Shown here in pieces: positions 32,370-63,312 of a stretch of 64,000 nucleotides of DNA. Location: the NCBI GenBank assembly GCA_012517435.1, contig JAAYUY010000076.1:1609-65608 (forward strand), in the 5' to 3' direction. Both the position numbers and the translations under genes were made by a program. The notes beneath the pieces were generated by a model, which saw nothing but the letters and a program-made list of their open reading frames with translations, was not told the origin of the DNA and ran no database searches. Origin of the DNA: Sphingobacteriales bacterium (GTDB lineage: Bacteria; Bacteroidota; Bacteroidia; CAILMK01; JAAYUY01). Position 1 is the stretch's first letter. Every line of letters begins with the position of its first letter.

Positions 32370-32375
32370 TCAGTC

Positions 32376-33824: not shown

Positions 33825-33888
33825 ATTTGCATATCTGATTTAATTCTCAATTTTGATTCGAAATTAAAATGCTACTTTTTGCAAAATA

Positions 33889-35646: not shown

Positions 35647-35649
35647 TAT

Positions 35650-44998: not shown

Positions 44999-46021
44999 TT
45001 ACCTGTTTAATTGAAGTTTAACCAATTGCTTCCCCGTCCTCAGCAGAATTTTATCCTTCCCTTCAAAAACTGCCATCCGGTAGGGTTCCCAGAATGGCGA
45101 CTCATTTATCTCAATTTCTGAAATCAGTTTTCCGTCTTTCAGGCTGATAGCCGACAGGTGATAGACGTTTCCCGAACCTAATGAAACAACAATAAAGTAA
45201 TCCTTATCAGCAGAAATGGTGATGGGATATCTGCTGAAGGTTTTGCCGGGCAGAACTCCTGAAAAAATAGGTTTTGCCCCATTATTTATGCTATAGAGTT
45301 TCCAGCCGTTTTCTTCTGTCACAATAAACTGTTTTTCGGAAATAAATTCAATTCCGCCAACACTCAGCGTATGATTCAGGCTGAAAAGTTTAGCTCCTTT
45401 ATCATCGTAAAAATCCGTAATAAAACTCATGCTTTCCTCTTTGAGGTAAGTGACAGCCATCAGTTCTCCACCGGGAGAAAGATTGACGGCCTGCGGAATG
45501 CAGTCTTCCATCCTGATTTCCCACTGAATATTCCCGTTTTTATCAACTTTCTTCAGGTATGGCAGGGAGTGAATGCTATCGATGTCCACATGGGCAAAGG
45601 CATAAAAATCACCTCCTGCAGAAGCAGCCACGGCATAAGGTGCATGACCTATTACTCCGACATTTTTAATCCAGTTCCCGTTTGTTTTTAAAACATGAAG
45701 TTCAAGGTTGTAATCTGTGTAAAAACCAGGTTCTTCTCCGTAATTAAATAATCTTTCAGCCTCCGGAACCACGATAAACATCCCAAGGGGTTTTTGTATT
45801 TCCATCCGCTGATTGTTGTAAGTAACAAATAACTCAGCCGGTTTTTCCACATAAAAATATCCTTCGAAACTTCCCGTAATAATTCCCTTGTTATCAGGCA
45901 GGTCGTTGATATTGTAATTCCTTGTGTAAGACACAGAAGATAAAATACGAAATCCGTTTTCCTGCGCTAAAACAAGGTGTGTCGAAAATACGGATAATAC
46001 TATCAAAATCCATTTATTCAT
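44999..46021 (-). CDS. Hypothetical secreted protein (340 aa) with beta-propeller-like (PQQ/BamB-like) repeats
   Basis: The signal peptide is MNKWILIVLSVFSTHLVLAQ. Several repeated strand motifs are present (GxxYAFAHVD, NGNIQWEI, ENGWKLYSI, GNVYHLSAISLKDGKLISEI). The stop is 2 nt before the start of the 2868-aa gene. The start is 23 nt after the stop of the 5482-aa gene. Confidence 0.75.
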   Translation of the reverse strand: MNKWILIVLSVFSTHLVLAQENGFRILSSVSYTRNYNINDLPDNKGIITGSFEGYFYVEKPAELFVTYNNQRMEIQKPLGMFIVVPEAERLFNYGEEPGFYTDYNLELHVLKTNGNWIKNVGVIGHAPYAVAASAGGDFYAFAHVDIDSIHSLPYLKKVDKNGNIQWEIRMEDCIPQAVNLSPGGELMAVTYLKEESMSFITDFYDDKGAKLFSLNHTLSVGGIEFISEKQFIVTEENGWKLYSINNGAKPIFSGVLPGKTFSRYPITISADKDYFIVVSLGSGNVYHLSAISLKDGKLISEIEINESPFWEPYRMAVFEGKDKILLRTGKQLVKLQLNR

Positions 46022-46044: not shown

Positions 46045-49000
46045 CTATTTAATTTCAGGCAACATGATCTGGAAGCCAAGACCGGCAGTTGACTTTGTAT
46101 AAATCAGGACAGAGCCGTAAGCACCCGGTCGAATGACCCATTGCGGGCCGTTCAGCTCCTTGAGCATAAAGGTCAGTTCGGTCTTTTTATTCTCAAGATC
46201 CGGAACACTCATTCCGACAGGCGCCAGAGCAAGACTTTTCAGGATAATGGTAGGCACATCAATATCTGTATTACCCACGTTGGCAAAATCGAGCGACATG
46301 GCCGTAATCGCAGAAGGCCTGACGTTGGCTGGTTTTGAAATACTGACCTGAAGGTCGGATGCCACTCCATTTACAATTTCAAAGCCCTTTATCAGTTTTG
46401 CCGTATCAGGCTTACTTGTTTTGATGGCTACCACATCATATTTGCCCAGCTTCGCACCCGCAAGGTTGTAGGTAACGAAAACCTTTGTCGGGTCAACATA
46501 AACAAGGGTGTCAGGCTCATAGACGGCACTGTCGTTTTGTAAAATAACCGTCATGGTGGTATCGAATTTACTTCCGCTGACAATTACGGTTACTTTCCCT
46601 GTATTTCCACCCTGGTTGGCACTGATTCCCCTGACTTCAAAATGAAGAATTTTCGCCATTAACCCTATTTTCTGCATGCTCCCTACCATCGTATAGCCGT
46701 AAACCATGATATAATAAGTACTGTCTTCCAGTGATGGCACTATTATTTCCTGATTGCCGTGGAAAGGCTCTGAATATGCATAATCGTAAACATTTCGGGT
46801 CGGTACCTTCAGATAACTGAGATACAACTCATTATCACCATTAACAGAATCACCGTACAGATTTAGTAACAGCGTTTCGGATTTCAGGGTATCGTGGCTT
46901 TCGAGTTTGAAATAGACCTCTGAATTATCATAAAGTGTATCGTAGGTCATGGTGTACCATGGCAGGTTCTGCACATTGACCTTCATGGTATCCACAGAAA
47001 TTTTTTCATTGTTGTTGTCATTGGTCTCATTGATGTTAGTAAGTATATCCGTCCTGACAATCACATAATAATAACCCAGCGTAACCCCTTTCAGTTGTTT
47101 TGTCATATTCTTTGAAACCTCCGTGTTGGGCGACAATCCGATGGTGTACTGATTCGTTCCGAACAATACGTCATTGACATCCCACTGATTGTCTTTTGAA
47201 ATATAAATGGCATCCCTGATGTAGCCTGTGGCGGGATTGATACCTGTATTTTTGATTTTGTAGGTAATGGTTGCTGATTTACCTGCAACGGCATTGAGTG
47301 GAAATCCGATATGAGAAACAATCAGGTCGCAGGGTGGAGCGGCAGTAATGGATATGGGGGCGCCCATGATGTTGTTGTCTTCTCCGTTATGCTCGTATTC
47401 TGCATCTGTGGCATCTGTTTTCAGTAAAATAATGCGGTTACCGGTGATATTTGAAGGTAAAAAGACCTGCTGACTCTGGTTGTAAGACGAGTTCACCGCC
47501 AATGAGGACGTTCGTTGAAAACTTCCTAGTAAGACATCGCTGCCGTCAATAGTAAAGTCAGCCGACAGATATATTCTGTCTTCAAAGGTAACACTGGTTG
47601 CTGCCTGCCCCTGATTTTTAACAGTCCACGTCACGGTAACGGGCTGTCCGGAGGTTCCGGTAGCTGGCGAATTGACAGATGTGGGTTTCAGGTCGGGTGT
47701 GAGGGTAAGCTTGATAAATATTTTCTTCATCTTATTCTGTGCGTCTGTCCTCGCCCGGTAATTATTGCTCAGGTTGACATCGTTGTTGTTGTTGTTTTCA
47801 TCCGTTACCACCAACAGGTAATAATTTCCTGTTATTCCGTTGGGCAGAGTCACATTAATGTTTTTCGTGTATGAAGCATTGGCTGCCAGCTGGGTTGTCA
47901 TGTCTTCACGGTTGATCAGGATGTCGGTGGCAGGGCTCCAGATGGAATCAGTTGAAAGATAGACCGCATTTTTGTAAGACGGAGCTAAACTCTTCCCCTG
48001 ACCATTGTTTTTAACCGAATAGGCAATGGCAAATGTTTTTCCTGAAGAGCCGGTGTCTCCGCAGGTTACATTGTAGATCATGAAATCAACCGGAGGATAG
48101 GCTTTGATATAAATAGGACGGAAAGAAGAGTTGTTGCTGTTTGAGGTATGCTCATAAATCTTGTCTTCATAATCTGTATAAACATGCAGGTAATATATTC
48201 CTGCAGTCAGGTTTGTTGCCAGTCCGGCCATGGTGGTGATATTGTAGGAATCACTGACGGCAAGCGAAGTTGGCCTGATCACATCTTTAAGTAAACTTGC
48301 TGTTGAAGAATTAAATACCGAGTCTTTTGAAATAAACACATTGTCTTTCCAAGATGAACCGGTAGCAGTAGCAGTTCCTTTGTTGGTAACCGTGAAATGA
48401 ACCGTTATCGGATCACCTGCTGTGGCAGTGTCGGGAGCTGATATTTCAACTACCTGAAGGTCAGGCCATGGGGACAAGGTAACCGTTATGGATGTATCGG
48501 CTTTTTTAGTGTTATTGTTTTCTCCCCCTGCTTCAAAGACATTATTGACTGCATCGGTGGCAATATACAGATAGTAAACACCTGAATATCCGTTGGGAAT
48601 GGTAATATTTGACGTTAACAGGTATTCATTGTTCACATTCATGCTTACAGAAGCAATGGTAATTTCCTGCAGAAATACTGCAGTGGAAGAATTGAATGTT
48701 GAATAAGGGGAAATATAGATTTTGTCTTTCCAGCCTCTGTTGATAATTTTTCCCGGGCCTGTGTTTTTATCTTTCCATTTGATATTAATGCTTGTTCCTG
48801 AATAGGCAGTTGCCGGATTTGAAATCCATGAAACTGTCAGGTCAGGCGATTTGATATAAATGGAATCGGGATCAGAAACATTGTTGTTTTCATAAGTGTA
48901 TTCATAAACACTGTTAAAACAGTCAGTTTTAACAAAAATGTAATATTTTCCGTTAATTCCTGTAGGAATGGTTATATTGCCCGGCAAAGTATCTGTCTGG

Positions 49001-52000
49001 CCGGGAGACAGGTCTTGTGAATGATAACGGGTGGCAAGCAGGATTGACCCTGATTCACTGAAAGTGCGGGAGGCAGAAATATAAATTTTATCATACCAGG
49101 AGCTTTCCGGATCATTTCCTCCCTGATTTTTAAGGTAATAGCTCATGCCAAGGGTTTCGTTATTGCTGGCACTGTCGGGGACATCTGTTCCGGTAACAAC
49201 CAGATCTGGCGGAGGAGTCAGAATGATTGAAATAGCATCACTTCTTTTCACATTGTTGTTTTCCCATGCATGCTCATATTCACTGTTGAAATAGTCCGTT
49301 TTAACAAAAATATAATAGGTCCCGAATATAGCATTGGGAATTGATACGGTTTTAGCTGCATTATACGTGCTGTTGACCAGCAACTGTCCATTATGATATA
49401 CATTTCCGAGATAATAACAATTGGCCGGATCAAAGGTGGTATCCTGTCCCAGATAAAGTGCATCGTACCAGTAATTGGTTACAGTGTTGCCGGTTCCCTT
49501 GTTCTGCACTGTCCATGAAACATTGGCATTTGTACCACTGTAAATCGTGTTTGGACGCACAATCGAAATGACCTGAAGGTCCGGAGGCGGAGTCAGTTGT
49601 ATCTGAAGGGTTGAGGAATTATAACCTTTATTATTGTTTTCATTTGACTCAGTCAGGGCAGAAAATTTATCGGTGATAAGGATAACGTAATAATTGCCCG
49701 ATAGTCCCTGCGGAATGGTGAATGTTTCCGTCTGATTATAGCTCACTCCGGATCCGAGTGAACTGAGATTGCTGACAGCTCCCAGATAAAAATCAACATT
49801 TTCATCCAGGTTGGTGTCTGATGATAAATAAGCTACATCAAACCATTCCGTGGAAAGGGTGCTGCCTGTTCCGGTATTTTTTATCTGCCACGACACATTG
49901 AAAGTCTGTCCTGAATATGCAGTCGAAGGTACCGTTACACTATTGACAATCAGGTCGGGGAGATACCTGACCGTAAATTTCTGAATATTTCCGGCAGTCT
50001 GACAGAATATACTCTTTGCCACAATCTGCCATTTATAAGTTTTGCCATATTGTAGGCTACCGTTGTAGGTGTAGGTAATCTGTGTAATGTTGGCAACCGT
50101 TGGGCTTACGGGTTTATTTTCCGTTTCAGGCCAGATATACAGATCATAACTGTTGGCTCCTGAGGCCGGAGACCATGAAAATGTTACCGGCAGGGCTACA
50201 TTCTGTGCAGTATCAACGGGCAGCATATTGCTGATGGCTCCCGGATAAGGATAATTGCTGAAATTATAGATAAAGGTATCATTTGAATGAATAGTATCTC
50301 CGCTGAGATTGGTCCAGCAAATCAGGGTATGATTTCCCTGCGTTGAAATATTCAGTACGGTATCGAATTTATATACATAGCTGCTTCCCTTTGGTATGGT
50401 AAGCGAACCAATATTCCTGACTACCACCTGCTGATTGTCGAATTTGTAATAAACATTGAAGTTGCTCTGTGACTGACCGCCAAAATTCTGGATTTTGACC
50501 CTGACGGTATCGCTTGACAGTCCGCACCCTGAAACAGGAGCTATAACAGCCGAAATCCCGACATCATGACTGACATAAGTAAACTCATCGGCTCCGATAT
50601 CAGGATAATTGGTATTACGGTTTTGATTGTCAATATCCTTTGTGATCCCTGTCACCGGAACAGCTGCACTGTCGAGTAATACCTGCGAAATGTGCAGATC
50701 GGTAGTGCTGTAAAACAAAGGATCCAATGATTTTGAATTATTATCCTGTCCGCTTGCCGACCTCCATGCTGACAAATCTGTTCGGTTTCCGCCCCAGTAA
50801 CCGAGAACAGATCCTGCAGAATAATGGTCGTTGTAATTCGAGTAAACAATAGCCGAAGTATTACTGATATAACAGGCATAACCTCCTCCGGTATTGGCAA
50901 AAATATTATTTTGCAAAACCACATTGGCATTGCCGTTTTCAACAAACAAAGCCCTGCTCCCTGTATGCGTATTACTGACGTTTATCGAATTGTAAATGAA
51001 ATCGGTATAGTCACAGAAGTTCATCACAACAGCAGAGGAAGAAGCAGTTCCTCCCAGTTGAAAGAAGTTGTTATAGATCTTCATTTTATTTGAAGAAGAA
51101 CCGTCTGCATCATACAATTGAAGGGAATAAGCTGATTTTTCAGAGCTGATTTTATTACCATAAATTTTCGGGCCATTGTTGGCTGTATTGATTGATATAG
51201 CTCCCTGGTAATTATTTACAGATGAAGAAAAGGTGTTGAAGGCTATCACCGGCTCACTTTGTCCATACAGAAAGACACCGGAAACAGACTGATTTTCAAA
51301 TATATTTCCGTAAATATAGGTTCCGCTTTCGTAAGACCCTGACAATCCGTATAGGCGAATGCCAAAACTTCCGTTATTAAATACATTGTAGCTGAATTCA
51401 TTTCCAATATCATTGTCTCCTGAAGAATATACATTGCTGAAGAAGTCGGAGGAATTAGTGGTTGAAACGCCTTCAAATCGGCAATTCCGGAACTTGTTAT
51501 AGTTGGCACCACCAAGGAGTTCAACGCCCCTTGCATAATAATTATGAATGGGCTGGAAGGTCATTTTCTTAAAGGTAACATAATCTGCACCGTTAAGCCT
51601 GAGTACATAGTTGTCTGAACTGTTGCCCTGATAGGTCAGGGTTACCAGATTGCTGTCGTTTCCTTCAGATTGAAAAGTAATCTGATTAACCGATGAACTT
51701 CCGGGAATTTGTCCGATGGATAGCTGTTCGTTGTAAACTCCTGTCCTGACATTAAACACAACCGCACCTACCACCCCGCCAAGATTCAGGATGTTGGCTG
51801 CTGCACCAAAACTAATAAAGTCAGGATTGCTGCCGCCAATGGTATAAGTCCCGCTTAAAGCTGCATAGAGATTCAGGGTTCTTGCCGTATCATTGGTATT
51901 CAGCGAGTCTCTGACACCATTCGGATTATAGGTATAGGCAACCAGGTTATAGGCAATGACTGTTTTAAATATATAATTACCAATGACTACCGTATCGTAT

Positions 52001-55000
52001 CTGCCTGGCAAAATGCTACCGCTCCAGCTCTTTGGCGTTTGAGAAATTCCATTGACCGACCATTTGATGGTTACTGTGGTAAGCGTATCGTATCCGAAAT
52101 TTTTCAATAAAACCTTCACCGGCAGGGTATCAGCAGGAAATGGAACAGCTGGATCGATAAAGCTCACAATACCAGCGTCATCGGAATAAGGTGCTTCAAA
52201 TTCATCCGCACCAATATCGGGTTTGCTGGCATGTCGTGTTTCTCCGTCAATATCCGCTGTTATGCCTGCAATTGGAGTACCTGCTTCGTTCAGCGTGATT
52301 TCACGAACATGTAAATCTGAATTTGAAACATATTGCGGATCTACTGAAATGGATGTTGCATCCAGACCAGTGGCACTTTTCCATGCTGCAAGGCTGCTGA
52401 TGTTACCGTTGTAATAAGCCAGATAATTTCCTTTTGAATAAATATTATTATATCCGGATGTAATTCCACTGGCAGTGCTGATATAATAAGCATACCCTGC
52501 TCCCCTGTTCACAATATTATTGTTTAACAAATTGATATTGTTTACACTATACAGATACAACGCCCGGCTGCCCGTTGCTGAGCCTGAAGTTATATTAATG
52601 TTGTTGAAATAAACATTGTGGTAAGACGAGTAATACAAATACAAACCTGTCGGATTAGATGTATTTCCGCCCACATAAATAAAATTGTTGTAAATATTTC
52701 CCTTGTAAGTTGATGTCCCATTGCTGTTGGATAAATAAATCCCAAAATACCCTGCCGGAACACTGATTTTATTACCCGCTATTTTGGTGGCATTCCGGCA
52801 ATCATACAGATAAACACCTATCGAATAGGAATAATAGGAAGACAGGTTGATAACATTGTTTTCAATTATCAGCCCGTCATGATAATAAGCATAAATGCCG
52901 TAATAAACAGCATTCTGAATGATGTTGCCCTTAATCTGTACTCCCGTTGAACCGGATGAACTGCTTCCAATAAGATAAACTCCGAAACTCCCATATTGAA
53001 TAACATTGTTCAGCAGGTTCAGGTGATGATTATTCCCTCCCTGAATATTAAACACACTGTAACTTGTAGAAGTAACATTACCGTTATACCCCTGAACCAC
53101 ATTGCCGGAGAATGTATTGTAAACGGCATCATTTGAAACCTGTATAACCGTACCGTAATATCCGGATGAGGCGGTTGTCCGTATGGTCATTTTTCTGAAG
53201 GTAATATAATCTGCTCCATCCAGATAAAGTGTGTAGTTATCATTATCGGTGTTCCAGCTAAGGAAAACCTGTGTACTGTCGCCAGACTCTGACTGGAATA
53301 CCACACTCCTTGACGACAAAGTTCCCGGGTATGAATTGATTTTCACCCGCTCGGTATAAATGCCGTTCCTGACATTAAAGATAACATTTCCTAAAATGCC
53401 GCCATTGTTTAAAATATTTACTGCATCGGAAAAGCTGTTAAAATCGGGTGAACTCCCGCCAATGGTGTAGGTTCCGTTCAATGCAGCATAAAGAACTGCC
53501 GATAACATTGTGTCGTTGGTATTAAAGGAGTCTGCATTTCCGTTTGGATTCACGGAATAAACTTTTATCTGGTAAGCTGTACCAATATTGAAATCAAATT
53601 TTCCGATGGTAACTGTATCTGAATTCCCGGTCAGCAGACTGCCCGACCAGTTATAGTCATTTTGACTGACTCCGTTTACTTTCCATTTGATGGTAACGGA
53701 TTTCAGCGTATCAGCGCCATAATTGGTAAGAACGACCCTCACCAGATTGGTATCAGCCGGAAATGGCACTGTCGGTGAGACAATGTCGTTGATTCCGGCA
53801 TCATCCTGAAGTGGCGGAGTAAATTCGTCAGCACCAATATCAGGGCGGGTGTTGTCGCGTGGCTCACCGTCTATGTCAACTGTAACTTCAGCTATGGGTG
53901 TTGCGGCTTTGTTTAAGGCTACCTCCTGAACATGTAAATCATTATTACTGTTGAACAAGGGATCTTTGGAAATAGAATTTGCATCTTTTCCGCTGGCTGC
54001 CTTCAGACCTGTCAGGGTGCTGATGTTTCCGTTCCAATAGGCGAGATAGGTGCCTCCTGTGTAAAAATTGTTGTAGTTGCTGGTACTGATAGTCGAAGTA
54101 CTGCTCACATAATATGCATAACCGGTTTTACAGGAAAATATATTATTTACCACATTAACATTTGAACCACCATAAATATAAAACGCATCACTTGAAGAAC
54201 TTGTATGATAAACATTAATGGAGTTGTAATAAAAATTACTGTAATAAGTATAGTAATTATACATTCCATAACCATAGGTATAAGTTCCGTTTATCGCAAT
54301 AAAATTGTTGGCAATCAGATTATACTCATTGGAGTTCCCCTGAACATTATATAAATACAATCCAAAGCCATCATTCTGGATGATTCTGTTGCCGGTAATA
54401 ACCGTCCGGTTGTAGCAATAATCAAGCTCTATACTCTCCATGTAATTATACGTTGAAGCCTGAAGGTTAATATAATTGTCTTTAATCACCAGATAACTCT
54501 GATTATATGCATAAATAGCGATATAACTGATGGAGTCAATTACATTCTTTTCAATTAAAGTGTTTTGCTGGTATCCTGAAGGTCCATATAGCCAAATTGC
54601 TGAAGCACCTTTCCGGATTACATTACCTGAAATGGTCAGATTATTTACGATCTGATAATTGTTGAATATCAGGAAATTATCGGATGATGTACTGCTATAA
54701 TTCGAACCGATAATAAGATTGTTTTTTAAAGAACAGTTCAAAGCATTGTTTGTAAGTTCGATTACCCTGCCATAAGAGCCATTTAATGCCTTGAGGGTCA
54801 TGTACCTGAATGTCAGATAATCGGCTCCGTTAAACCTGATCGTATAATTATTTGAAGAATTAGAGGAATACTGAAGTACGACTTTGGTACTATCCAGACT
54901 TTCCGACTGAAAAATGATAGTATTACTTGCTGAAGTCCCAGTAATTTCCGTAATATCGAGCTGTTCGGTATAAACTCCGTTTCTGACATTAAACACGACA

Positions 55001-58000
55001 TTGCCCAGTATTCCCCCCAGTTTCAGGGAATTGACTGCGCTCGTAAATGACGTAAAATCAGGGTTGCTGCCTCCTATGGTATAAACCCCGGAAAGTGCAG
55101 GCGACAGGTTGGGTACAACGATTGAATCATTTATCAAATTGTTATCTGTCAATCCATTGGGTAAAGTTGTCCATGCCTGTATCTGGTAAGTTGTCCCAAG
55201 ACTGAAAATAGCGTTTCCGATAATAACATAAACAGTGTCAGCACTTTTCAGACTTCCTGACCAGTAATATGGTGTTTGGGTTACTCCATTGATTTTCCAG
55301 TTGATGGTTACGCTTTTCAGGGTATCACTTCCATAATTCCTTAACCTGACCGTTACGGCATAGGTATCTGCCACAAAAGGTTTGACCGGATTGAGTAAGG
55401 CAACAAGGCCGGCATCATTTGAAGGAGGAGTAAATTCATCGGCTCCGATATCGGGAGTTACACTGTTTCTTGTCTCATTGTCAATATCTTTGGTTATTCC
55501 ACTGACCGGGCTGGCGGCTGCATTCAGGGTAATTTCTGAAACATGAAGATCTGTACTGGAATAAAATAACGGATCTATCGAAACAGAATGGTTGTCATAA
55601 CCTGAGGAAGAATTCCACGATGCCAGATCTGTTTTACTGTTCCCTCCCCAATATGCAAGATATTGCCCTTTGGCATACAGATTATTGTAATCAGAATATA
55701 CGAGTGAGTAATTAGAGTAGGCATAAATGGCATAGCCATCACCTTTATTGCATAGAATATTGTTCTTTAGTCTGTTGTTGCCGCCATAATATAATCCAAT
55801 ACAATATCCACTTGAGTTGCTTGTATTTGTAATGTTTATATTGTTGTAGTAAAAATTAACGTAATAACTACCATAGCAATAAATTCCTCTGCCACTCGAA
55901 CTACCTGTGATGGAAATAAAGTTGTTGTAGATACTAACCGGAATTGCATTAGTCCCCTCGCAATAATAGAGCGTTACACCATAGCCCTGAAAGCCAATCT
56001 GAATCTTGTTTTCAGAAATCCTTACCTCCTCGTTGCAATAATATAAATACATTCCGTAGGTATAGTTTGCTGAGGAGGTAGCGATATAGTTTCCGCTTAT
56101 CTGAGGAGATGTCTGATAATACAAAAATAATCCGGCATAATACATATTGTCAAAAGTATTATTAAGGATAACAGTGCCTTTCATTCTCTCTGAATAGTTT
56201 TTTCCACTGATCAGTAAGCCAAAGCTGCCGTTTTTCAGTACATTACTGATATACTGATTATCATTACAGTTGTCGTAACTAATGTAAATCAGTGCATCGT
56301 AATCTGACGTTGAATTGATCGAAGGTCTGATGATAATATTGTTTAAAATTGAATTGTTGGAAGCGCTGTTAACCATTTTAATGACCCTGCCATAATAAGA
56401 ATTCAGGCTCTTGAGCGTCAGCTTTTTAAATGTGATAAACCTGGCACCATTAAGCAATATGACATAGTTGTAATCATAATTTGTACTGTTGTATTGAAGA
56501 ATCACCTTTGTACTGTCATAGCTGTACGACTGGAATGTGATGGTTTTCTCGGCAGAAACACCATCAATATTACCGATAACAATTTGTTCCGTATAAGTCC
56601 CGTCTTTTACTCTGAATATTACAGATCCTGAAATTCCATTCGTCATAAGGCTGTCAACAGCCTCCGTAAAACTGGCAAATGAATCCGTTGAAGATGACCC
56701 GATGGTATAAATGCCGTTTAATGGATTTTTTGCTGTCAGGCTGATGCTTAGGGTATCATTCAGTTTATTGCCATCGATGCTGTTGTTGGGATTTTTTGTC
56801 CAGATTTTTATATTATGAGTTCCCCAGCTCAGATAGGCAGTACCTATGGTTACGGCTATTGCTGTATCCCCTTCCGGTAACGAACCACTCCAGTTGTAGG
56901 CAGTTTTTGAAGTCCCGTCAATTTGCCATTCTACTGTAACTGATTTGAGTGTATCGCTTGCAAAGTTTTTTATGGAAACTTTAAATGTTCTGCTTCCCTT
57001 CTGACATGGACTGCCAGGCTCATCAAGAGCAATGATACCGGCATCCAGGTTGGGAGGGGTAAATTCATCGGCACCAATATCTGAATTTAACGTATCGCGG
57101 GCATCTCCGTCAATATCTATATCAACTTCTGCAACCGGTTGTGCCTTTCCATTGATGTTTTTACTGAATGAATGCAGGTCGGTAGCAGAAAAATATTCCG
57201 GATCTGCTGAAATACTGTTTGAATCCATTGATGTAACGGATTGCCATGCAGACAGATTTGTTATCTGTGAACTGAAAAAGCCGAGATAGCTGCCGTTGGT
57301 TTTCAGATTATTATAATCGCTTGTGAATGTATTGGCCATGGAACAGTAATAGGCATATCCACCGGCATTGTTGATGAAATTATTATTCTTCACCCGGTTG
57401 TTATAGTAAGTATAGGTGGATATATAAAATGCATAGCTGTAATTATAGTATCCGGTAATATTTACGCTATTATAAAAAACATCTGAATACTGGTTGTATG
57501 CACTGTAAATACCATAGCTGCTGTTTCCATTTGCATTGATGATTATGAAATTATTGGCAACCAGTACTCTCCGGTCTGATTGTCCTGTAGCATTATAAAT
57601 ATATATTCCATATCCTCCTGATGAGTTCCTGGCTATAATCTTATTTTTGATGATCTTTGAGGAATATCTGATAGAGTAGAGATAAATTCCGTAATAATAA
57701 TATGTTGTGTTGGTCTCAAAAGTATTTCCTTCGATAAGTATTCCGTCATGTCTTTCATTATAAATTCCAATGTAATACTGGTTTAAAAAAACATTGTTCT
57801 TAATGACCATTCCACTTTCATAATTGCTCCCGTACCAGTATAATCCCATGCTCCCATTCACAAACAGATTACCGATAAATATAAAATTGCTGTCGATCGA
57901 AGCATCCGAATATATTAACGCCCTGTCATTTGAAGTTGATGTGTTATTGCTCCCTTCAAATATGCAATTTTGGAATTGGTTGTCTGAGGAGTAATTGTCA

Positions 58001-61000
58001 ACCACTATCACCCTGCTATAGCTTGTATTCGGGTTTAAGAAAGTCATTTTATAAAAACGAAAATATTTTGCCCCTGACATTTTTATCACATAATTGTCAG
58101 TGTATGAGGATGGTGTGTAAGTAAGTTTTACTGCCGTACTGTCGTTTGCAGAAGATATGAAGGTAATGGTATTCACCGCTGAACTTCCACTTATATAGGG
58201 AATGCTTATTTGTTCCGTATAGGTCCCGGAATTGACAATAAATACCACCGGCCCGCAAATACCATAAGCAATCAGGCTATCAACCGCACTTTTAAAACCC
58301 GGAAAGCTGGCTCCGCTACCGCCAATGGTAAAGGTATCACAAAGATACGAGAACTTGACTGTAACCAATTGGGTGTCATTATTCTTATTTCCATCGGTTG
58401 TATTGTTTGGATTTTTTGTCCATGCTTTAATGGTATAGGTTCCTGTAGAAAAGGTAAAATTGCCAAGACTCAGATTGCTGACTGACTGGTTTGGAGGTAA
58501 GGTTCCACTCCAGTTATAGGTTGTTTGTGAAGTTCCGTTTATTTTCCATTCAATACTTACATTTTTAAGCGTATCTGTCCCGTGATTTTTAAGCGTAACT
58601 TTCACTGCATACTGGCCATTTTTATTTGTTCCTGAAGGGTCGGTAATGGCAATGATGCCGGCATCATTGGCTGGAGGTACAAATTCATCGGCTCCAATAT
58701 CGGGTGTCGTGGTATGACGTGTTTCATCATCAATGTCTTTGGTAACATTGGCAACAGGCAATGCTTTTCCATCCAGGGCAAGATTTGATATATGGAGGTC
58801 GGAATTGGACACAAAATCGGGAAATACTGATACAGAATGAAGATCTTTCCCTGATGATGACTGCCAGGCTGACAGGTTATTTTTGGGCGTTCCAAGATAG
58901 TTTCCCAGATTAGTTCCTGTAGTGTAATAATTATTATGATCGCTTGAATCGGGCGAGACTCCTTCAAATTGTACTGCAAAAGAACCTGTCTGATTACAGA
59001 TATTATTGTTCAACAGAATATTTCCGGTATTCGACTGCCAACTATTATAATAAAGGCCGGCTCCTGATGAATAGGTCCCTTTCAGATTGACACTGTTGTA
59101 AAATATCTGCTGATAATAACAGCTGTTAATATAAATTCCGTAAACATTATTGCTACTATTACCCAGATAAATGAAATTATTGGCAATCAAACCTTTTTTC
59201 GAACTACTTCCATTGCAGTAATAAAGAATTAAACCCATTCCTCCTCCACAGTAAGGAGCTTGAATTTTATTTGATAAAATACTTGATTCATTATCACAAC
59301 TGTATAAGTAAAAGCCATAAAAATTGGAATAATTTGTTACAGTCGAGATAAAATTTTTCTCAAAAACGGGAGAATTTTGATTGTAGGCCAAAAAACCAAT
59401 ATAATAAGGATCCTGAATAACATTAGAAATAAACCTGTTGTTATCGGGTTTTATTGAGGTTGTGGAATACAAATAGAATCCGATTGATCCGTTCAAAATA
59501 AGGTTATTGCTGAACAAATTATTTTCGCTTGACTCATTTCCTGTATCATATATATAAACAACCGTCATATTGTTACTTGTAGATGTCGTATTATAACCGG
59601 TCAGGCAACAGTTTTTAATCTGGTTATGACATGCTCCGTTGTTTAGCCAAACCACTCTTGAATAGTAGGAGGAGGTGTTTTTAATGGTAACATTTTTAAA
59701 AATGATATAGTCGGCTCCGTCAAGCATTAAAACATAATTACTGGAGGAATAGTAAGGGGCATAAGTTATGATGACGGTAGATGAATCGCCTGAAACAGAT
59801 TCAAAGGTTATGGTATTGGTAGATGAAGCCCCCATGATGGATGGTATATACACCTGTTCATTATAGGTACCGGAAGCTATTTTGAAAACCACAGGCCCGC
59901 TGACTCCGCAGCGGTTTATCAGAGCATTGACAGCCGCAGTCAGAGAAGAAAAAGAGTCTCCCGGGTTCGGGCCAATGGTATAAGTACCGTTCAAAGGAAT
60001 ACACGACTGAAATGTTATTTCCTGTGTGTCGTTTGGGGCAAATTGATCTGTCTGGGTGTTGGGGTTTTTCGTCCATGCCTTCAGGGTGTGAGTCCCAAGC
60101 GAAACAGACACATTCCCAAGTGTAATTAGCGAGGAAGTATCTCCCGATTTAAGGCTACCTGACCAGTTATAGGTTGTCCCTGAATTACCATCATATTTCC
60201 AGTCGATTTGAGCTGATTTGATGGTATCGGCACCAAAATTCCTGAATCTAACTTTAACGGCTGTATTTCCCGGGTATGCGGGTGTAACAGGCTGATCTAT
60301 TGTTAAAATTCCAACATCCACACTGTTTAAATCAAATTCATCTGCTCCGATATCAGGCAAACTGGATGAACGGTTTTCCTGATCAATATCTATCGCTACA
60401 CCGGCAAAGGGTTTTGCTTTTCCATTCAGGTTAATATCTTTCAGGTGAAGATTACTGGCACTGAAAAACTGTGGTAAAACAGACAAGCTGTGTGAGTCTT
60501 GTTTGGTCGTTGAAATCCAGCTGGTTAAGTTTATAATATTAGTTGCCCAGTAGCCCAACCTGCTGCCGGTAGTAAAAAGATTGTTGTAATCTGATGAAAT
60601 GCCGGAAGTATTGCTGCAATAGATCGAATATCCGTTTGCCTGATTTACTGAGATATTATTCCTGAATGTACAGTTTGAAAAATTGCTCCCTGAATAATAA
60701 AACCCAAAACTGTTACTGTAATTTCCGGTAATGTTGATGCTGTTATAGACAATATCCTGATACTCGCTGTAATAATGATAAATACCATAGGCATTGTTAT
60801 TTACCGAAGGAATATGAATAAAATTATTTGCTGTCAGACAATGTAAGGCAGAGTCGCCATAGCACATATCCAGAAAAATACCATACCCTCCTGAGGTTGC
60901 ATCAGGTAATAAGATACTGTTTCCTGAATTGACAAATCCCTCTGTGCAAAAATACAGGTAAATTCCATAAAACGTGACGGATGTCGATGATTCGATCAGA

Positions 61001-62493
61001 TTGTATTTAATCTCATGATGTGACTGATTTTCAAGAAAAATTCCGAAATAATACTGCTCTTTAAAATGATTACCGATGAATTTATTGTAGCTCTCATCGT
61101 CAACACCTCCATAAAAACAAACTCCGTAAGAACCATATAAAAAATAATTCTGCAGAAACGTATTGCTGGTATCTGTTTCATCATCTGAATAAACAATGGC
61201 AAAGTCTTCGGAAAAGTTGAAAGCCTGGGTGCTTTGCAACTGATTGTTCTGAAAAATATTATTGCATGCTCCTCCGGTCAGATACACGGTCCGGGCATAA
61301 TTGGTTCCGTTTGCCCTGAAAGAAATTCTTTCAAATCTGATATAATCGGCCCCATCCAGCATGACCACATAATTGTTTTCCAAATCGCTGGCAGAATAAA
61401 CTATTTTCACCTTACTGCTATCGCTGACGGCTGATTTAAAAGTAATGGTATTCGAAGAAGAAGCTCCCTGGATAGCAGGAATTCTGATGTGTTCATTATA
61501 AGTTCCGGTGTCTGCCACAAAAGTAACAGGTCCGTTTACCCCGCAGCTCACCAACCTTTGAACTGCCGCTGTAAAGTTTGGGAAGGAATCGGTGGCATCA
61601 GGTCCGATTGTGTATGTACCGCTCAATGCATTGCATACGTAAAAGCTGTAAATAAAGGTGTCGTTGTTCTTATTGCTGTCATTGACATTGTTGGGATTTT
61701 TTGTCCATGCTTTTATCGTATGGGCACCAACCGGGAAATGATGATTCCCCAGCAAAAGTTGGGAAGATGTCTGTCCGGTTGCGAGGCTTCCTGTCCAGCT
61801 GTAGCCGGTTTTATTGCTGGTATCTGCTTTCCAGTCAATTCCCGCACTTTTCAAAGTATCCAATCCATAATTTTTGATTCTTGCTTTGATGTTAACTGTA
61901 CCCGGCCTGACCGGCACTGCAGGTGAATCAACCGATATGACACCCGCATCATGATGATAGGGAACAACCAACTCGACCGAATAATCTTCCACCTCACCCC
62001 ATGAAAAAACTCCGCAGGAGTTGTGACTTCCCTGATAACGGCAACGGATTCTTAACACGGTTTTTCCTTTATAAGTTAATCCGACTGGTACATTTATCGT
62101 AAATGAAGACGGGCTGGTGCTTTTACTCCCCAGATATTCATTCGCATCCGTAAAATCTTTATCGTTGTTCCAGTCGATATAGGCATCAAAATAATCACCA
62201 TTGTAATGATTACCATTGTAAACTGTCAGGGTATAGCTATTCCCTGCAGTCAATACTGTTAAAATATTTGTGTAATCAGAATAGCCGGATATGCCATTGC
62301 TGCCAAGTCCGCAACCAGAGGATTTGCTGATGGTGTTTAATTCAACCTTTGAAATATATTCATCACAATTGCTCGCCCCTGCTGAACAATAAGTCTGGGA
62401 TTTCAGGCTGAGAGGAATTTGTAAAACGACAAACAGCATTAAATATTGCCAAAAATGATGATGCTTTTTTAGCTGCAATGTACCCATATACAA
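46045..62493 (-). CDS. Giant (5482 aa) cell-surface protein. It has an N-terminal GEVED-motif domain, seven beta-helix/CARDB supermodules, an FN3-like domain, eight tandem CARDB domains, a PPC-like (pre-peptidase C-terminal-like) domain and an IPT-like end. No recognisable T9SS CTD.
   Basis: Uninterrupted 16,449-nt ORF. The N-terminal hydrophobic signal is MLFVVLQIPLSLKSQ, and ...SCGVFSWGEVEDYSVELV lies at residue ~170. Seven modules carry PDIGADEF linkers. CARDB units are separated by PPPDL motifs. The C-terminus ...GLGFQIMLPEIK lacks type-A and type-B CTD signatures. Confidence 0.92.
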   Translation of the reverse strand: MYMGTLQLKKHHHFWQYLMLFVVLQIPLSLKSQTYCSAGASNCDEYISKVELNTISKSSGCGLGSNGISGYSDYTNILTVLTAGNSYTLTVYNGNHYNGDYFDAYIDWNNDKDFTDANEYLGSKSTSPSSFTINVPVGLTYKGKTVLRIRCRYQGSHNSCGVFSWGEVEDYSVELVVPYHHDAGVISVDSPAVPVRPGTVNIKARIKNYGLDTLKSAGIDWKADTSNKTGYSWTGSLATGQTSSQLLLGNHHFPVGAHTIKAWTKNPNNVNDSNKNNDTFIYSFYVCNALSGTYTIGPDATDSFPNFTAAVQRLVSCGVNGPVTFVADTGTYNEHIRIPAIQGASSSNTITFKSAVSDSSKVKIVYSASDLENNYVVMLDGADYIRFERISFRANGTNYARTVYLTGGACNNIFQNNQLQSTQAFNFSEDFAIVYSDDETDTSNTFLQNYFLYGSYGVCFYGGVDDESYNKFIGNHFKEQYYFGIFLENQSHHEIKYNLIESSTSVTFYGIYLYFCTEGFVNSGNSILLPDATSGGYGIFLDMCYGDSALHCLTANNFIHIPSVNNNAYGIYHYYSEYQDIVYNSINITGNYSNSFGFYYSGSNFSNCTFRNNISVNQANGYSIYCSNTSGISSDYNNLFTTGSRLGYWATNIINLTSWISTTKQDSHSLSVLPQFFSASNLHLKDINLNGKAKPFAGVAIDIDQENRSSSLPDIGADEFDLNSVDVGILTIDQPVTPAYPGNTAVKVRFRNFGADTIKSAQIDWKYDGNSGTTYNWSGSLKSGDTSSLITLGNVSVSLGTHTLKAWTKNPNTQTDQFAPNDTQEITFQSCIPLNGTYTIGPNPGDSFSSLTAAVNALINRCGVSGPVVFKIASGTYNEQVYIPSIMGASSTNTITFESVSGDSSTVIITYAPYYSSSNYVLMLDGADYIIFKNVTIKNTSSYYSRVVWLNNGACHNQIKNCCLTGYNTTSTSNNMTVVYIYDTGNESSENNLFSNNLILNGSIGFYLYSTTSIKPDNNRFISNVIQDPYYIGFLAYNQNSPVFEKNFISTVTNYSNFYGFYLYSCDNESSILSNKIQAPYCGGGMGLILYYCNGSSSKKGLIANNFIYLGNSSNNVYGIYINSCYYQQIFYNSVNLKGTYSSGAGLYYNSWQSNTGNILLNNNICNQTGSFAVQFEGVSPDSSDHNNYYTTGTNLGNYLGTPKNNLSAWQSSSGKDLHSVSVFPDFVSNSDLHISNLALDGKALPVANVTKDIDDETRHTTTPDIGADEFVPPANDAGIIAITDPSGTNKNGQYAVKVTLKNHGTDTLKNVSIEWKINGTSQTTYNWSGTLPPNQSVSNLSLGNFTFSTGTYTIKAWTKNPNNTTDGNKNNDTQLVTVKFSYLCDTFTIGGSGASFPGFKSAVDSLIAYGICGPVVFIVNSGTYTEQISIPYISGSSAVNTITFISSANDSTAVKLTYTPSSYTDNYVIKMSGAKYFRFYKMTFLNPNTSYSRVIVVDNYSSDNQFQNCIFEGSNNTSTSNDRALIYSDASIDSNFIFIGNLFVNGSMGLYWYGSNYESGMVIKNNVFLNQYYIGIYNERHDGILIEGNTFETNTTYYYYGIYLYSIRYSSKIIKNKIIARNSSGGYGIYIYNATGQSDRRVLVANNFIIINANGNSSYGIYSAYNQYSDVFYNSVNITGYYNYSYAFYISTYTYYNNRVKNNNFINNAGGYAYYCSMANTFTSDYNNLKTNGSYLGFFSSQITNLSAWQSVTSMDSNSISADPEYFSATDLHSFSKNINGKAQPVAEVDIDIDGDARDTLNSDIGADEFTPPNLDAGIIALDEPGSPCQKGSRTFKVSIKNFASDTLKSVTVEWQIDGTSKTAYNWSGSLPEGDTAIAVTIGTAYLSWGTHNIKIWTKNPNNSIDGNKLNDTLSISLTAKNPLNGIYTIGSSSTDSFASFTEAVDSLMTNGISGSVIFRVKDGTYTEQIVIGNIDGVSAEKTITFQSYSYDSTKVILQYNSTNYDYNYVILLNGARFITFKKLTLKSLNSYYGRVIKMVNSASNNSILNNIIIRPSINSTSDYDALIYISYDNCNDNQYISNVLKNGSFGLLISGKNYSERMKGTVILNNTFDNMYYAGLFLYYQTSPQISGNYIATSSANYTYGMYLYYCNEEVRISENKIQIGFQGYGVTLYYCEGTNAIPVSIYNNFISITGSSSGRGIYCYGSYYVNFYYNNINITNTSNSSGYCIGLYYGGNNRLKNNILCNKGDGYAIYAYSNYSLVYSDYNNLYAKGQYLAYWGGNSKTDLASWNSSSGYDNHSVSIDPLFYSSTDLHVSEITLNAAASPVSGITKDIDNETRNSVTPDIGADEFTPPSNDAGLVALLNPVKPFVADTYAVTVRLRNYGSDTLKSVTINWKINGVTQTPYYWSGSLKSADTVYVIIGNAIFSLGTTYQIQAWTTLPNGLTDNNLINDSIVVPNLSPALSGVYTIGGSNPDFTSFTSAVNSLKLGGILGNVVFNVRNGVYTEQLDITEITGTSASNTIIFQSESLDSTKVVLQYSSNSSNNYTIRFNGADYLTFRYMTLKALNGSYGRVIELTNNALNCSLKNNLIIGSNYSSTSSDNFLIFNNYQIVNNLTISGNVIRKGASAIWLYGPSGYQQNTLIEKNVIDSISYIAIYAYNQSYLVIKDNYINLQASTYNYMESIELDYCYNRTVITGNRIIQNDGFGLYLYNVQGNSNEYNLIANNFIAINGTYTYGYGMYNYYTYYSNFYYNSINVYHTSSSSDAFYIYGGSNVNVVNNIFSCKTGYAYYVSSTSTISTSNYNNFYTGGTYLAYWNGNISTLTGLKAASGKDANSISKDPLFNSNNDLHVQEVALNKAATPIAEVTVDIDGEPRDNTRPDIGADEFTPPLQDDAGINDIVSPTVPFPADTNLVRVVLTNYGADTLKSVTIKWKVNGVSQNDYNWSGSLLTGNSDTVTIGKFDFNIGTAYQIKVYSVNPNGNADSFNTNDTMLSAVLYAALNGTYTIGGSSPDFNSFSDAVNILNNGGILGNVIFNVRNGIYTERVKINSYPGTLSSRSVVFQSESGDSTQVFLSWNTDNDNYTLYLDGADYITFRKMTIRTTASSGYYGTVIQVSNDAVYNTFSGNVVQGYNGNVTSTSYSVFNIQGGNNHHLNLLNNVIQYGSFGVYLIGSSSSGSTGVQIKGNIIQNAVYYGIYAYYHDGLIIENNVINLSSYYSYSIGVYLYDCRNATKIAGNKISVPAGYFGIYLSNSNGTSTYKGNIYNNFIYVGGNTSNPTGLYLYYSSYHNVYFNNINITSGSATGSRALYLYSVNNINLLNNNIVNRGAGYAYYISTASGITSGYNNIYSKGNYLAYYNGNISSLAAWKSATGLDATSISVDPQYVSNSDLHVREITLNEAGTPIAGITADIDGETRHASKPDIGADEFEAPYSDDAGIVSFIDPAVPFPADTLPVKVLLKNFGYDTLTTVTIKWSVNGISQTPKSWSGSILPGRYDTVVIGNYIFKTVIAYNLVAYTYNPNGVRDSLNTNDTARTLNLYAALSGTYTIGGSNPDFISFGAAANILNLGGVVGAVVFNVRTGVYNEQLSIGQIPGSSSVNQITFQSEGNDSNLVTLTYQGNSSDNYVLRLNGADYVTFKKMTFQPIHNYYARGVELLGGANYNKFRNCRFEGVSTTNSSDFFSNVYSSGDNDIGNEFSYNVFNNGSFGIRLYGLSGSYESGTYIYGNIFENQSVSGVFLYGQSEPVIAFNTFSSSVNNYQGAISINTANNGPKIYGNKISSEKSAYSLQLYDADGSSSNKMKIYNNFFQLGGTASSSAVVMNFCDYTDFIYNSINVSNTHTGSRALFVENGNANVVLQNNIFANTGGGYACYISNTSAIVYSNYNDHYSAGSVLGYWGGNRTDLSAWRSASGQDNNSKSLDPLFYSTTDLHISQVLLDSAAVPVTGITKDIDNQNRNTNYPDIGADEFTYVSHDVGISAVIAPVSGCGLSSDTVRVKIQNFGGQSQSNFNVYYKFDNQQVVVRNIGSLTIPKGSSYVYKFDTVLNISTQGNHTLICWTNLSGDTIHSNDTFIYNFSNYPYPGAISNMLPVDTAQNVALPVTFSWSPASGANSYDLYIWPETENKPVSPTVANITQITYTYNGSLQYGKTYKWQIVAKSIFCQTAGNIQKFTVRYLPDLIVNSVTVPSTAYSGQTFNVSWQIKNTGTGSTLSTEWFDVAYLSSDTNLDENVDFYLGAVSNLSSLGSGVSYNQTETFTIPQGLSGNYYVILITDKFSALTESNENNNKGYNSSTLQIQLTPPPDLQVISIVRPNTIYSGTNANVSWTVQNKGTGNTVTNYWYDALYLGQDTTFDPANCYYLGNVYHNGQLLVNSTYNAAKTVSIPNAIFGTYYIFVKTDYFNSEYEHAWENNNVKRSDAISIILTPPPDLVVTGTDVPDSASNNETLGMSYYLKNQGGNDPESSWYDKIYISASRTFSESGSILLATRYHSQDLSPGQTDTLPGNITIPTGINGKYYIFVKTDCFNSVYEYTYENNNVSDPDSIYIKSPDLTVSWISNPATAYSGTSINIKWKDKNTGPGKIINRGWKDKIYISPYSTFNSSTAVFLQEITIASVSMNVNNEYLLTSNITIPNGYSGVYYLYIATDAVNNVFEAGGENNNTKKADTSITVTLSPWPDLQVVEISAPDTATAGDPITVHFTVTNKGTATATGSSWKDNVFISKDSVFNSSTASLLKDVIRPTSLAVSDSYNITTMAGLATNLTAGIYYLHVYTDYEDKIYEHTSNSNNSSFRPIYIKAYPPVDFMIYNVTCGDTGSSGKTFAIAYSVKNNGQGKSLAPSYKNAVYLSTDSIWSPATDILINREDMTTQLAANASYTKNINVTLPNGITGNYYLLVVTDENNNNNDVNLSNNYRARTDAQNKMKKIFIKLTLTPDLKPTSVNSPATGTSGQPVTVTWTVKNQGQAATSVTFEDRIYLSADFTIDGSDVLLGSFQRTSSLAVNSSYNQSQQVFLPSNITGNRIILLKTDATDAEYEHNGEDNNIMGAPISITAAPPCDLIVSHIGFPLNAVAGKSATITYKIKNTGINPATGYIRDAIYISKDNQWDVNDVLFGTNQYTIGLSPNTEVSKNMTKQLKGVTLGYYYVIVRTDILTNINETNDNNNEKISVDTMKVNVQNLPWYTMTYDTLYDNSEVYFKLESHDTLKSETLLLNLYGDSVNGDNELYLSYLKVPTRNVYDYAYSEPFHGNQEIIVPSLEDSTYYIMVYGYTMVGSMQKIGLMAKILHFEVRGISANQGGNTGKVTVIVSGSKFDTTMTVILQNDSAVYEPDTLVYVDPTKVFVTYNLAGAKLGKYDVVAIKTSKPDTAKLIKGFEIVNGVASDLQVSISKPANVRPSAITAMSLDFANVGNTDIDVPTIILKSLALAPVGMSVPDLENKKTELTFMLKELNGPQWVIRPGAYGSVLIYTKSTAGLGFQIMLPEIK

Positions 62494-62565: not shown

Positions 62566-63312
62566 CTATATTTTGTTTCCTGTATTCCTGATAAGCTGGT
62601 CGAGCTGAGTACCTAATTCTTCGGTTATCTTTGTCAGTTGATTCTTGGTGAGGGCAATCATGTCAATTAATTCAACCCTGGTGCGGTTAATTCTCGAATC
62701 CAGGGAGGCTTGAGACAACTGTACCTCTTTGGTAATCATGGGTTTAATTTCAGATTTCATCTTGCCGAAATCTTCCTTAGCCGATTCAAGCGCCTCATTG
62801 ACGGTTTCTTCAAGATAGGCCAGTTTGCTTATTTTTTTGTTCAGGATGAAAAACAAAATAATCTCTAAAACCAATAAAACGGCCAATCCGGCAAATGCCA
62901 GTAATACCATTCCCTTAACCATCGTCACACTTCCTCTGACAACTTCCAGGTCGTCATCCACTTTCTTTCTCAGGTCGCTGACCGTAAAAATGGTATTGCT
63001 GAGAGAATCAGAAGTCAGACTGACTTTGATGTTCATCGATTGCAAAACCTTTGTCAGTGTGTCAATGTTTGCTTTCAGGGCATCGAAATTATTATCTTTT
63101 GCATTAACTCGTGCACTCAGGGCACCTATTTGTCCCGAAATGCGGCTAAGTTTTTCACTCATTTCAGCCATGCTTGCATCATAATCTTTTTTTAAGACAT
63201 ATTGCGGGGGAGGTGTTTTTGGCGGTGTTTTCGGGGGAGTGGTTGTTTGTGCAAACAAGTTTGAAATCATGAATAATGCTACTAATGTGTAAACCAATCT
63301 TTTCATAGGCAA
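62566..63312 (-). CDS. Hypothetical membrane-anchored coiled-coil protein (248 aa) with a PPKT-repeat N-terminus
   Basis: The signal peptide is MKRLVYTLVALFMISNLFAQ, followed by TTTPPKTPPKTPPPQ. Heptad-rich segments are split by one internal transmembrane helix (MVKGMVLLAFAGLAVLLVLEIILFFIL). It is first in the operon, 72 nt upstream of the 5482-aa gene. Confidence 0.7.
   Translation of the reverse strand: MPMKRLVYTLVALFMISNLFAQTTTPPKTPPKTPPPQYVLKKDYDASMAEMSEKLSRISGQIGALSARVNAKDNNFDALKANIDTLTKVLQSMNIKVSLTSDSLSNTIFTVSDLRKKVDDDLEVVRGSVTMVKGMVLLAFAGLAVLLVLEIILFFILNKKISKLAYLEETVNEALESAKEDFGKMKSEIKPMITKEVQLSQASLDSRINRTRVELIDMIALTKNQLTKITEELGTQLDQLIRNTGNKI

Follow-up and report, generated by a model that had tools for sequence, protein, structure and literature searches.

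The 64,000-nucleotide stretch of DNA analyzed here (the window; Sphingobacteriales bacterium assembly GCA_012517435.1, contig JAAYUY010000076.1, positions 1,609 to 65,608 of the forward strand) carries on its minus strand a gene for a giant, secreted-looking protein of some 5480 amino acids (aa), followed on the same strand by genes for a 340-aa secreted protein and a 2868-aa protein. The 2868-aa protein ends in a type-A C-terminal domain (CTD), a T9SS (type IX secretion system) sorting tag; the giant bears neither a type-A nor a type-B CTD by hidden Markov model (HMM) or profile–profile tests, and the fold of its end is nearest to domains other than CTDs. Its chain closes with a small domain of another kind, and in a large family of such giants the pairing of the protein that ends in this domain with a module of the 2868-aa protein, hereafter the partner, is near-obligate.

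The giant gene is intact. The reading frame reported in the original prediction, 5482 codons counted from a TTG, is real; the true start is likely an ATG two codons inside it, giving 5480 aa, and ten near-identical database copies from independent assemblies are each 5480 aa long (named "CARDB domain-containing protein [Bacteroidia bacterium]" or [quoted passage not shown]). The product ends in ...GFQIMLPEIK before the stop, and a 61%-identical homologue has the same end, ...LP(K/E)IK (there ...LPKIK), followed by a 341-aa gene. Because a second in-frame stop (TGA) stands three codons past the giant's TAG, the idea that the frame continues into the 340-aa gene by read-through or frameshift was rejected, and the 23 nucleotides (nt) after the giant's stop open directly into that gene, which has its own signal peptide. 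With the same stop in the ten assemblies and in the homologue, and the second stop close behind, truncation just before a CTD, an outcome that the prediction had allowed for, is excluded.

Tests for a sorting domain at the giant's C terminus were uniformly negative. Pfam and NCBIfam searches of its last 120, 200, or 400 aa returned no T9SS CTD at E ≤ 10, type A or type B, and when 89 family tails were scanned singly, none matched Por_Secre_tail, CHU_C, TIGR04183, or TIGR04131 (E ≤ 1). Comparison by hhalign of the 89-tail profile with 16 type-A CTDs, both window CTDs included, gave a probability of 0.3%. Neither the type-A models (PF18962 / TIGR04183) nor remote homology thus places the giant among type-A proteins, and the CHU_C-type match expected of type B (PF13585 / TIGR04131) is absent from its tail and from those of the family. 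The 340-aa product likewise lacks the PorP_SprF match in Pfam expected of a type-B carrier, and it has no NCBIfam match. The same searches succeed elsewhere in the window: The two neighboring giants, correctly described from the outset as type-A proteins, match Por_Secre_tail (E 7.5e-7 and 3.1e-11), and a 686-aa protein matches CHU_C (E 1.8e-24). The original claim that this giant has no recognizable T9SS sorting domain is therefore borne out, and a divergent type-A CTD is rejected by the hhalign value and the 89 negative tails.

An AlphaFold2 (AF2) model built from an 89-sequence alignment (predicted local distance difference test, pLDDT, 93.4) folds the last 113 aa into a small β-sandwich with one short helix and about seven strands. 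The folds closest to it are those of CARDB, DUF11, and MG domains rather than of CTDs, and Foldseek against the Protein Data Bank (PDB) agrees. From the lack of profile similarity to CTDs, the AF2 model, and the Foldseek agreement, the tail is predicted to be an immunoglobulin (Ig)-like domain of the CARDB/DUF11 kind that belongs to no described family. No Pfam or NCBIfam family matches it, a PDB sequence search found no match, and a profile comparison with the CARDB domains of the window itself shows marginal similarity (2%). One Asn is invariant and an LRPG motif is kept in more than 90% of members; the extreme C-terminal residues differ among them. The domain shows neither an HMM match to the CLIPPER/DUF11 isopeptide families (PF01345 / TIGR01451) nor their Lys-Asp/Glu-Asn triad, which is not evident because the invariant Asn has no invariant Lys to accompany it in the alignment. 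The name CLIPPER had been considered as a hint of self-cleavage; this was dropped, CLIPPER being the isopeptide domain DUF11.

With the giant's last 257 aa as query and an E limit of 0.001, an exhaustive HMMER search recovered 3411 cluster representatives; at E ≤ 1e-30 the number was 346. The window protein is the second-best match. The full domain match stops 0–8 aa from the C terminus in all 150 matches listed. Every one of 102 full-length representatives carries 7–10 CARDB domains (median 8), then PPC, IPT, and the terminal domain. The N termini differ, with β-helix modules in 45 of the 102 and GEVED in the window protein alone; this constant order beneath differing heads defines a base of ~1,300 aa that is constant and a head that is variable. 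Where sources are named they are Bacteroidia, Sphingobacteriales, Bacteroidales, and Lewinellaceae, all Bacteroidota, and members are annotated as "hypothetical," as "CARDB domain-containing," or, once, as "subtilase family serine protease." A word-indexed protein search yielded fragments and short proteins only; the giant relatives escaped it. Three proteins of ~445 aa that combine IPT with OmpA (P0154-P0156) were considered as partners and set aside: They have IPT alone in common with the giant and are absent from the loci.

We pulled metagenome loci with a degenerate DNA pattern for N-x-G-N-x-D ... L/I-R-P-G, verified on the window. It found 77 loci, in 75 of which the open reading frame (ORF) stops 73–85 codons past the motif start. 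Tblastn places the partner module downstream of the giant, on its strand, in 23 of the 24 loci whose downstream sequence reaches 6 kb or more and in 29 of the 31 where it reaches 4.5 kb or more, at E 1e-64 or better in almost all. The motif DPN[DE]IxGPxG[YF]...FENDP is invariant in all partner modules found downstream, and Por_Secre_tail was present in 10/10 partner tails tested. The window conforms, with the full PPC–IPT–terminal cassette at the giant's C terminus and a DPNDIxGP-DUF7619 protein downstream on the same strand; the partner gene begins 2 nt past the 340-aa gene, and no terminator-like site was found between the three genes. DUF7619 itself is a CnaA-like domain with a predicted internal isopeptide bond (PMC12617251). 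An apparent dependence on a dedicated co-encoded partner, as originally suggested, is supported by this synteny together with the fusions and reverse look-ups described below, with the CTD-bearing 2868-aa protein in the main role and not, as had been suggested, the small flanking proteins.

Several further properties of the partner deserve record. It has 2868 aa in the window and 2700 aa in sister assemblies (same 90% cluster), with PKD-repeat copy number the likely cause. Its N-terminal region, which bears an M23 peptidase domain, recurs in the partners of loci with the 340-aa gene and occupies the position of the toxin-like payload of other loci. The DPND-DUF7619 module also occurs in P0200, P0216, P0238, P0237, P0242, and P0261; these carriers are named for candidate division KSB1, Pleurocapsales, or Gemmataceae, so the module may reach beyond Bacteroidota, and some of these non-Bacteroidota-named proteins carry a dockerin (PF00404).

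Two exceptional loci of the 77 (L068 and L006) are in-frame fusions of the cassette with the DPNDIxGP-DUF7619 module. The L068 chain runs from a CARDB array through PPC, IPT, the terminal domain, a ~150-aa PLA2-like insert, and DPNDITGP-DUF7619 to a type-A CTD; the L006 chain runs from the cassette through SprB-like repeats to DPNEIKGP-DUF7619 and onward. Both match the window's partner at E 1e-77 to 1e-80, and in both the terminal domain is internal, with its motifs kept. The PLA2-like domain of L068 (fusion aa ~1510-1665) matches PLA2G12 / Phospholip_A2_3 at E 1e-4 to 1e-3, under the cut-off; a related domain forms the toxin end (C-terminal ~190 aa) of an Rhs protein at L083 (5462..9994), and P0209 joins DUF7619 with PLA2G12.

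A second kind of fusion involves Rhs proteins. At L031 and L008 an Rhs shell with a ~180-aa payload is fused to the same DUF7619 module, L031 ending in a CTD, and in both kinds, giant–module and Rhs–module, the DUF7619-CTD part lies on the C-terminal side. The association also holds in reverse. Starting from short DUF7619+CTD proteins (449–535 aa) picked solely for their long contigs, we found in 4/4 a CARDB giant upstream with the terminal domain at its end (E 1e-17 to 1e-24), and in 4/4 the giant and the partner are separated by a gene for a secreted DUF6531+Rhs toxin protein; one of these loci belongs to the cultured strain Siphonobacter sp. SORGH_AS_0500. At least 13 sister loci have an Rhs gene, and no Rhs (YD-repeat) gene was found in the giant's part of the window. 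At L081-L084 (for example L081 4348..9075), L002, L036, L073, L048, L031, and L008, the gene directly after the family giant encodes a secreted DUF6531+Rhs protein whose C-terminal toxin region varies; a short DUF7619+CTD gene is often next, and by eye the Rhs proteins have no CTD of their own.

The layout of the giant and its surroundings is collected in Table 1. Most of the chain, ~70% of the protein, had been omitted from the initial domain summary: It consists of seven modules of ~540 aa in tandem, each of which joins a CARDB-like Ig domain to a right-handed β-helix that ends in DIGADEF. They are 37–47% identical among themselves in a seven-way alignment and 33–38% identical, over ~1900 aa, to modules of the 9405-aa neighbor. 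The GEVED-like N-terminal domain and the eight tandem CARDB domains named at first reading both have firm Pfam matches, and the IPT-like domain is supported by profile matches to PF01833 proteins; the IPT region also forms β strands in a two-sequence AF2 model of the last 257 aa, whose overall pLDDT is only 32. The PPC-like domain is matched, yet weakly and under the curated cut-off, and homologues show the same weak match. The proposed FN3-like domain (aa ~4090-4179) found no HMM match.

Table 1. Features of the giant, its partner, and the rest of the window (positions in the window; aa numbering of the giant unless stated)
Feature	Coordinates	Strand	Evidence or remarks
ORF of the giant as listed	46045..62493	-	starts at TTG 62493; 5482 codons
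Giant CDS (coding sequence)	46045..62487	-	ATG at 62487; stop TAG 46045-46047; 5480 aa; start likely
Putative Sec-type signal peptide (MGTLQLKKHHHFWQYLMLFVVLQIPLSLKSQ...)	62392..62487	-	read from sequence
GEVED domain (aa 101-173)	61975..62193	-	PF20009, E 2.5e-14
Seven tandem ~540-aa modules (aa 177-3971)	50581..61965	-	motif spacing and seven-way alignment; Beta_helix, NosD matches
Extra CARDB-like domain and FN3-like stretch (aa 3972-4179)	49957..50580	-	CARDB match; FN3 label without HMM support
Eight tandem CARDB domains (aa 4180-5176), start of family-constant base	46966..49956	-	PF07705, 8 stretches, E 1.5e-75
PPC-like domain (aa 5194-5266)	46696..46914	-	PF04151, E 4.5e-4, under curated cut-off
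IPT/TIG-like domain (aa 5282-5369)	46387..46650	-	profile matches PF01833-bearing proteins P0154-P0156
Terminal domain "Term" (aa 5370-5482)	46048..46386	-	AF2 pLDDT 93.4; closes protein; motifs N-x-G-N-x-D, L-R-P-G
340-aa secreted protein, possibly β-propeller	44999..46021	-	sub-threshold DUF5711 match only
2868-aa partner	36390..44996	-	Pfam; in order along the chain, a signal peptide, an M23 peptidase, an SprB repeat, the DPNDITGP-DUF7619 module, 17 PKD domains, and a type-A CTD
Partner's M23 peptidase domain	44232..44528	-	E 7e-10
Partner module, DPNDITGP + DUF7619 (partner aa 740-1095)	41712..42779	-	motif at 42570..42593
Partner's type-A T9SS CTD	36429..36641	-	PF18962, E 7.5e-7
Upstream 248-aa coiled-coil membrane protein	62566..63312	-	weak coiled-coil matches
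102-aa ORF	63624..63932	-	C-terminal part of arginase family, E 5.7e-22
Trk potassium-uptake cluster	31026..36339	+	trkA named by NCBI
9405-aa neighbor	2272..30489	-	Ig + β-helix modules, PKD and SprB repeats, type-A CTD
686-aa protein	208..2268	-	five PKD domains, type-B CHU_C

The genes directly flanking the giant are less constant than the partner. Across 73 loci, the first gene after the giant is a ~400-aa Ig/Cys-rich protein in 41, usually trailed by a ~470-aa thrombospondin-type-3-repeat protein; a homologue of the 340-aa protein in 11, then a partner with an N terminus like that of the window's M23-bearing partner; an Rhs protein in 9; the partner itself in 7; and another gene in 5. The 340-aa protein accordingly ranks, by its distribution across the loci, as a clade-specific accessory. 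Its label as a secreted β-propeller found no HMM confirmation beyond the sub-threshold DUF5711 match, and a PDB sequence search with it returned no match. The ~470-aa protein consists mostly of thrombospondin type-3 calcium-binding repeats and is the second gene downstream, ahead of the DUF7619 partner, in L010, L011, L013, L018, and ~25 other loci; loci of the L010, L011, L013, and L018 type are, to judge by the appearance of their contig names, presumably rumen-derived. Upstream, the 248-aa protein has the look of the coiled-coil membrane protein it was taken for, through weak matches. As a conserved partner it was rejected, no homologue having been found upstream of nine family members with 5′ ends present, and it is probably outside the system.

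Elsewhere in the window, the 9405-aa neighbor has no DPND-DUF7619 module; its single chain bears the Ig + β-helix modules, repeats of the PKD and SprB kinds, and a type-A CTD. Any PorP/SprF-like carrier for the 686-aa type-B protein would fall past the window edge. The Trk cluster lies between the two giant-gene loci on the opposite strand and has nothing to do with the giant–partner pairing; when plasmids were searched with the trk region, no match came up. For the 102-aa ORF the match covers the C-terminal portion of the arginase family alone, and its gene most likely crosses the window edge.

How, then, might a giant without a CTD be connected to the T9SS? With moderate confidence, we favor the giant being a CTD-less subunit of a split, T9SS-associated surface complex whose C-terminal end serves as a docking domain and not as an export signal. 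Since their genes almost always adjoin and are occasionally fused, the giant and its tag-bearing partner are probably one split surface machine; by the gene-fusion ("Rosetta stone") argument they are parts of one assembly. The CTD-bearing protein would be its hub, given that giants and Rhs proteins are both found fused to its N-terminal side, and the terminal domain, which keeps its motifs when internal before an ordinary CTD, is more likely a contact surface between subunits or domains. In this scheme, the giant would be exported by Sec, its C-terminal cassette would dock onto the DPNDIxGP-DUF7619 module of the co-transcribed partner, and the partner, here 2868 aa, would supply T9SS targeting and surface anchorage through its CTD, so that the giant would reach or stay on the surface by co-export or by capture after export. 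We infer physical docking, the touching surfaces, the export route, T9SS dependence, and surface location. That the giant's head can be T9SS cargo follows from its modules, which are paralogous to those of the CTD-bearing 9405-aa neighbor.

Several points weigh against this proposal. Synteny and fusions prove functional linkage, not contact surfaces. The fusions place 150–180 aa of variable sequence between the terminal domain and the DPND motif, and because a PLA2-like domain (L068) or SprB-like repeats (L006) intervene, the two are not immediate chain neighbors. One of the 24 well-covered loci has no module in the sequence present, and the family's taxonomy rests on a handful of source names. 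We know of no established precedent for T9SS export of a CTD-less protein in trans. Targeted searches of a library of papers found none for such export, for this cassette, for the pairing, or for T9SS hitchhiking, and searches there on DUF7619 and on GEVED/CARDB/T9SS yielded no description of the giant–partner pairing.

The same limit on what synteny and fusions show, namely functional linkage only, leaves some room for a reading that we hold unlikely: that giant and DUF7619 protein function together while the giant's location is independent of the partner (periplasmic, through vesicles or lysis, or by another route), the terminal domain being simply the last domain of the stalk. The domain's generic Ig-like fold, near to that of the preceding CARDB domains, would suit this, as would the intervening genes, which differ by clade (Ig/Cys-rich plus thrombospondin type-3, propeller-like, Rhs). 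Yet the domain is far more conserved than a generic stalk domain, with its invariant Asn and an LRPG motif in over nine-tenths of members; base and CARDB count stay constant while heads vary; and the giant and Rhs fusions both place the DUF7619-CTD part C-terminally.

Less probable still is a third class of T9SS sorting signal, in which the terminal domain or the PPC–IPT–terminal cassette would be read by the translocon or by a dedicated carrier and the giant exported alone. The domain is almost always C-terminal and the named family members are all Bacteroidota, and C-terminal signals of neither type A nor type B are reported from Flavobacterium johnsoniae (Kulkarni et al. 2017, cited in PMC10994853). 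A β-sandwich of ~110 aa with about seven strands also has the gross shape of a CTD (PMC10994853, PMC11285876). Profile comparison nevertheless shows no likeness to CTDs (0.3% probability), the nearest folds lie with CARDB, DUF11, and MG and not with CTDs, the extreme C-terminal residues are variable, and the 340-aa downstream protein has no PorP/SprF match. The domain is internal with its motifs intact in L068 and L006, and the complete fusion, L068, ends in an ordinary type-A CTD; the new export signal entertained in the original prediction is for this reason unlikely. That faulty sequencing or assembly cut the ORF short of a CTD, or that the ORF is a pseudogene fragment, found no support and has a negligible chance of being correct, given the stop shared by ten independent assemblies, the 61%-identical homologue, and 75 metagenome loci, the 23 nt leading at once to a gene that encodes a signal peptide of its own, and a 340-aa downstream product without a CTD.

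A bolder and distinctly tentative extension suggests itself: an undescribed T9SS-coupled, multi-subunit machine of Bacteroidota for contact killing or adhesion, in which component A would be the CARDB-stalk giant with its variable targeting head, B a payload, and C the DPNDIxGP-DUF7619-CTD protein, the sole component with a T9SS tag, which would carry or capture the other two. In many loci the payload would be a toxin encapsulated by Rhs and in some a PLA2-like domain; here it would perhaps be the M23 cell-wall peptidase. On these terms the T9SS would export CTD-less proteins in trans, and the invariant Asp-Pro motif might be a site of processing or cross-linking.

These observations challenge the rule that a C-terminal domain is what defines T9SS cargo. 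A large family of giant, secreted-looking Bacteroidota proteins, comprising hundreds of clusters at 50% identity, has no T9SS CTD; the terminal domain is a new, unannotated family that annotators could model; and the loci add a tie, in Bacteroidota, of Rhs toxins to a partner with a T9SS tag. It becomes testable whether proteins can be moved or anchored by the T9SS in trans, a question raised earlier for TANFOR toxins (PMC7073777); the cultured Siphonobacter sp. SORGH_AS_0500 carries the Rhs version of the locus (NHPP01000007.1, ~253-265 kb).

Among known systems, those whose working the giant most resembles are T9SS surface adhesins and the proposed TANFOR toxins. Like type-A cargo (the 9405-aa and 2868-aa neighbors; Porphyromonas gingivalis RgpB), it is a multidomain Bacteroidota surface protein with a Sec signal peptide, and it shares head modules (33–38% identity) with the window's CTD-bearing 9405-aa protein, but here the CTD belongs to a separate co-transcribed protein. 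Type-B adhesins with a PorP/SprF-like carrier (SprB–SprF; PMC10994853) resemble it as giant adhesins with a small gene directly after them and anchorage via a second protein; unlike them, the giant has no CHU_C/TIGR04131 match, and its 340-aa neighbor has no PorP_SprF match and is not family-wide. TANFOR polymorphic toxins of Bacteroidetes, which are large, CTD-less proteins with signal peptides encoded beside SprB/Fn3/PKD/CTD T9SS substrates, have been proposed to go through the T9SS in a way not yet known (PMC7073777). The giant is alike in size, signal peptide, missing CTD, and T9SS-substrate neighbor. It differs in having no C-terminal toxin and in being linked by a specific cassette/DUF7619 pairing backed by fusions; its N-terminal 200 aa gave no NCBIfam match at E ≤ 10, hence no TANFOR domain showed up there. 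Fibrillar adhesins whose stalks are Ig-like, among them those with CLIPPER/DUF11 and DUF7619 isopeptide domains (PMC12617251, PMC8286594), share the head–stalk plan and the Ig-like repeats in tandem, DUF7619 here being carried by the partner. In contrast to them, the giant's own chain has no anchor and its terminal domain no evident isopeptide triad. Because the defining features of the type-A, type-B, CLIPPER, and TANFOR families were tested for and not found in it, the giant stands outside all four.

Two further systems resemble the proposed complex in its division into parts. Rhs and ABC-type (Tc) toxin complexes come to mind where, as in many sister loci, the genes form a three-gene set of giant, DUF6531+Rhs shell with variable toxin, and partner; the locus described here differs in lacking an Rhs gene, neither a TcA-like pore nor a TcB-like domain is present, and the third component is a T9SS-tagged DUF7619 protein. 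In the gingipain–adhesin complexes of P. gingivalis (RgpA/Kgp/HagA), pieces that arise by cleavage of one exported polyprotein are joined noncovalently at the surface, one alone having a CTD-derived anchor. The complex proposed here would likewise consist of several pieces with a single CTD bearer, but of pieces made from separate genes, each with its own signal peptide.

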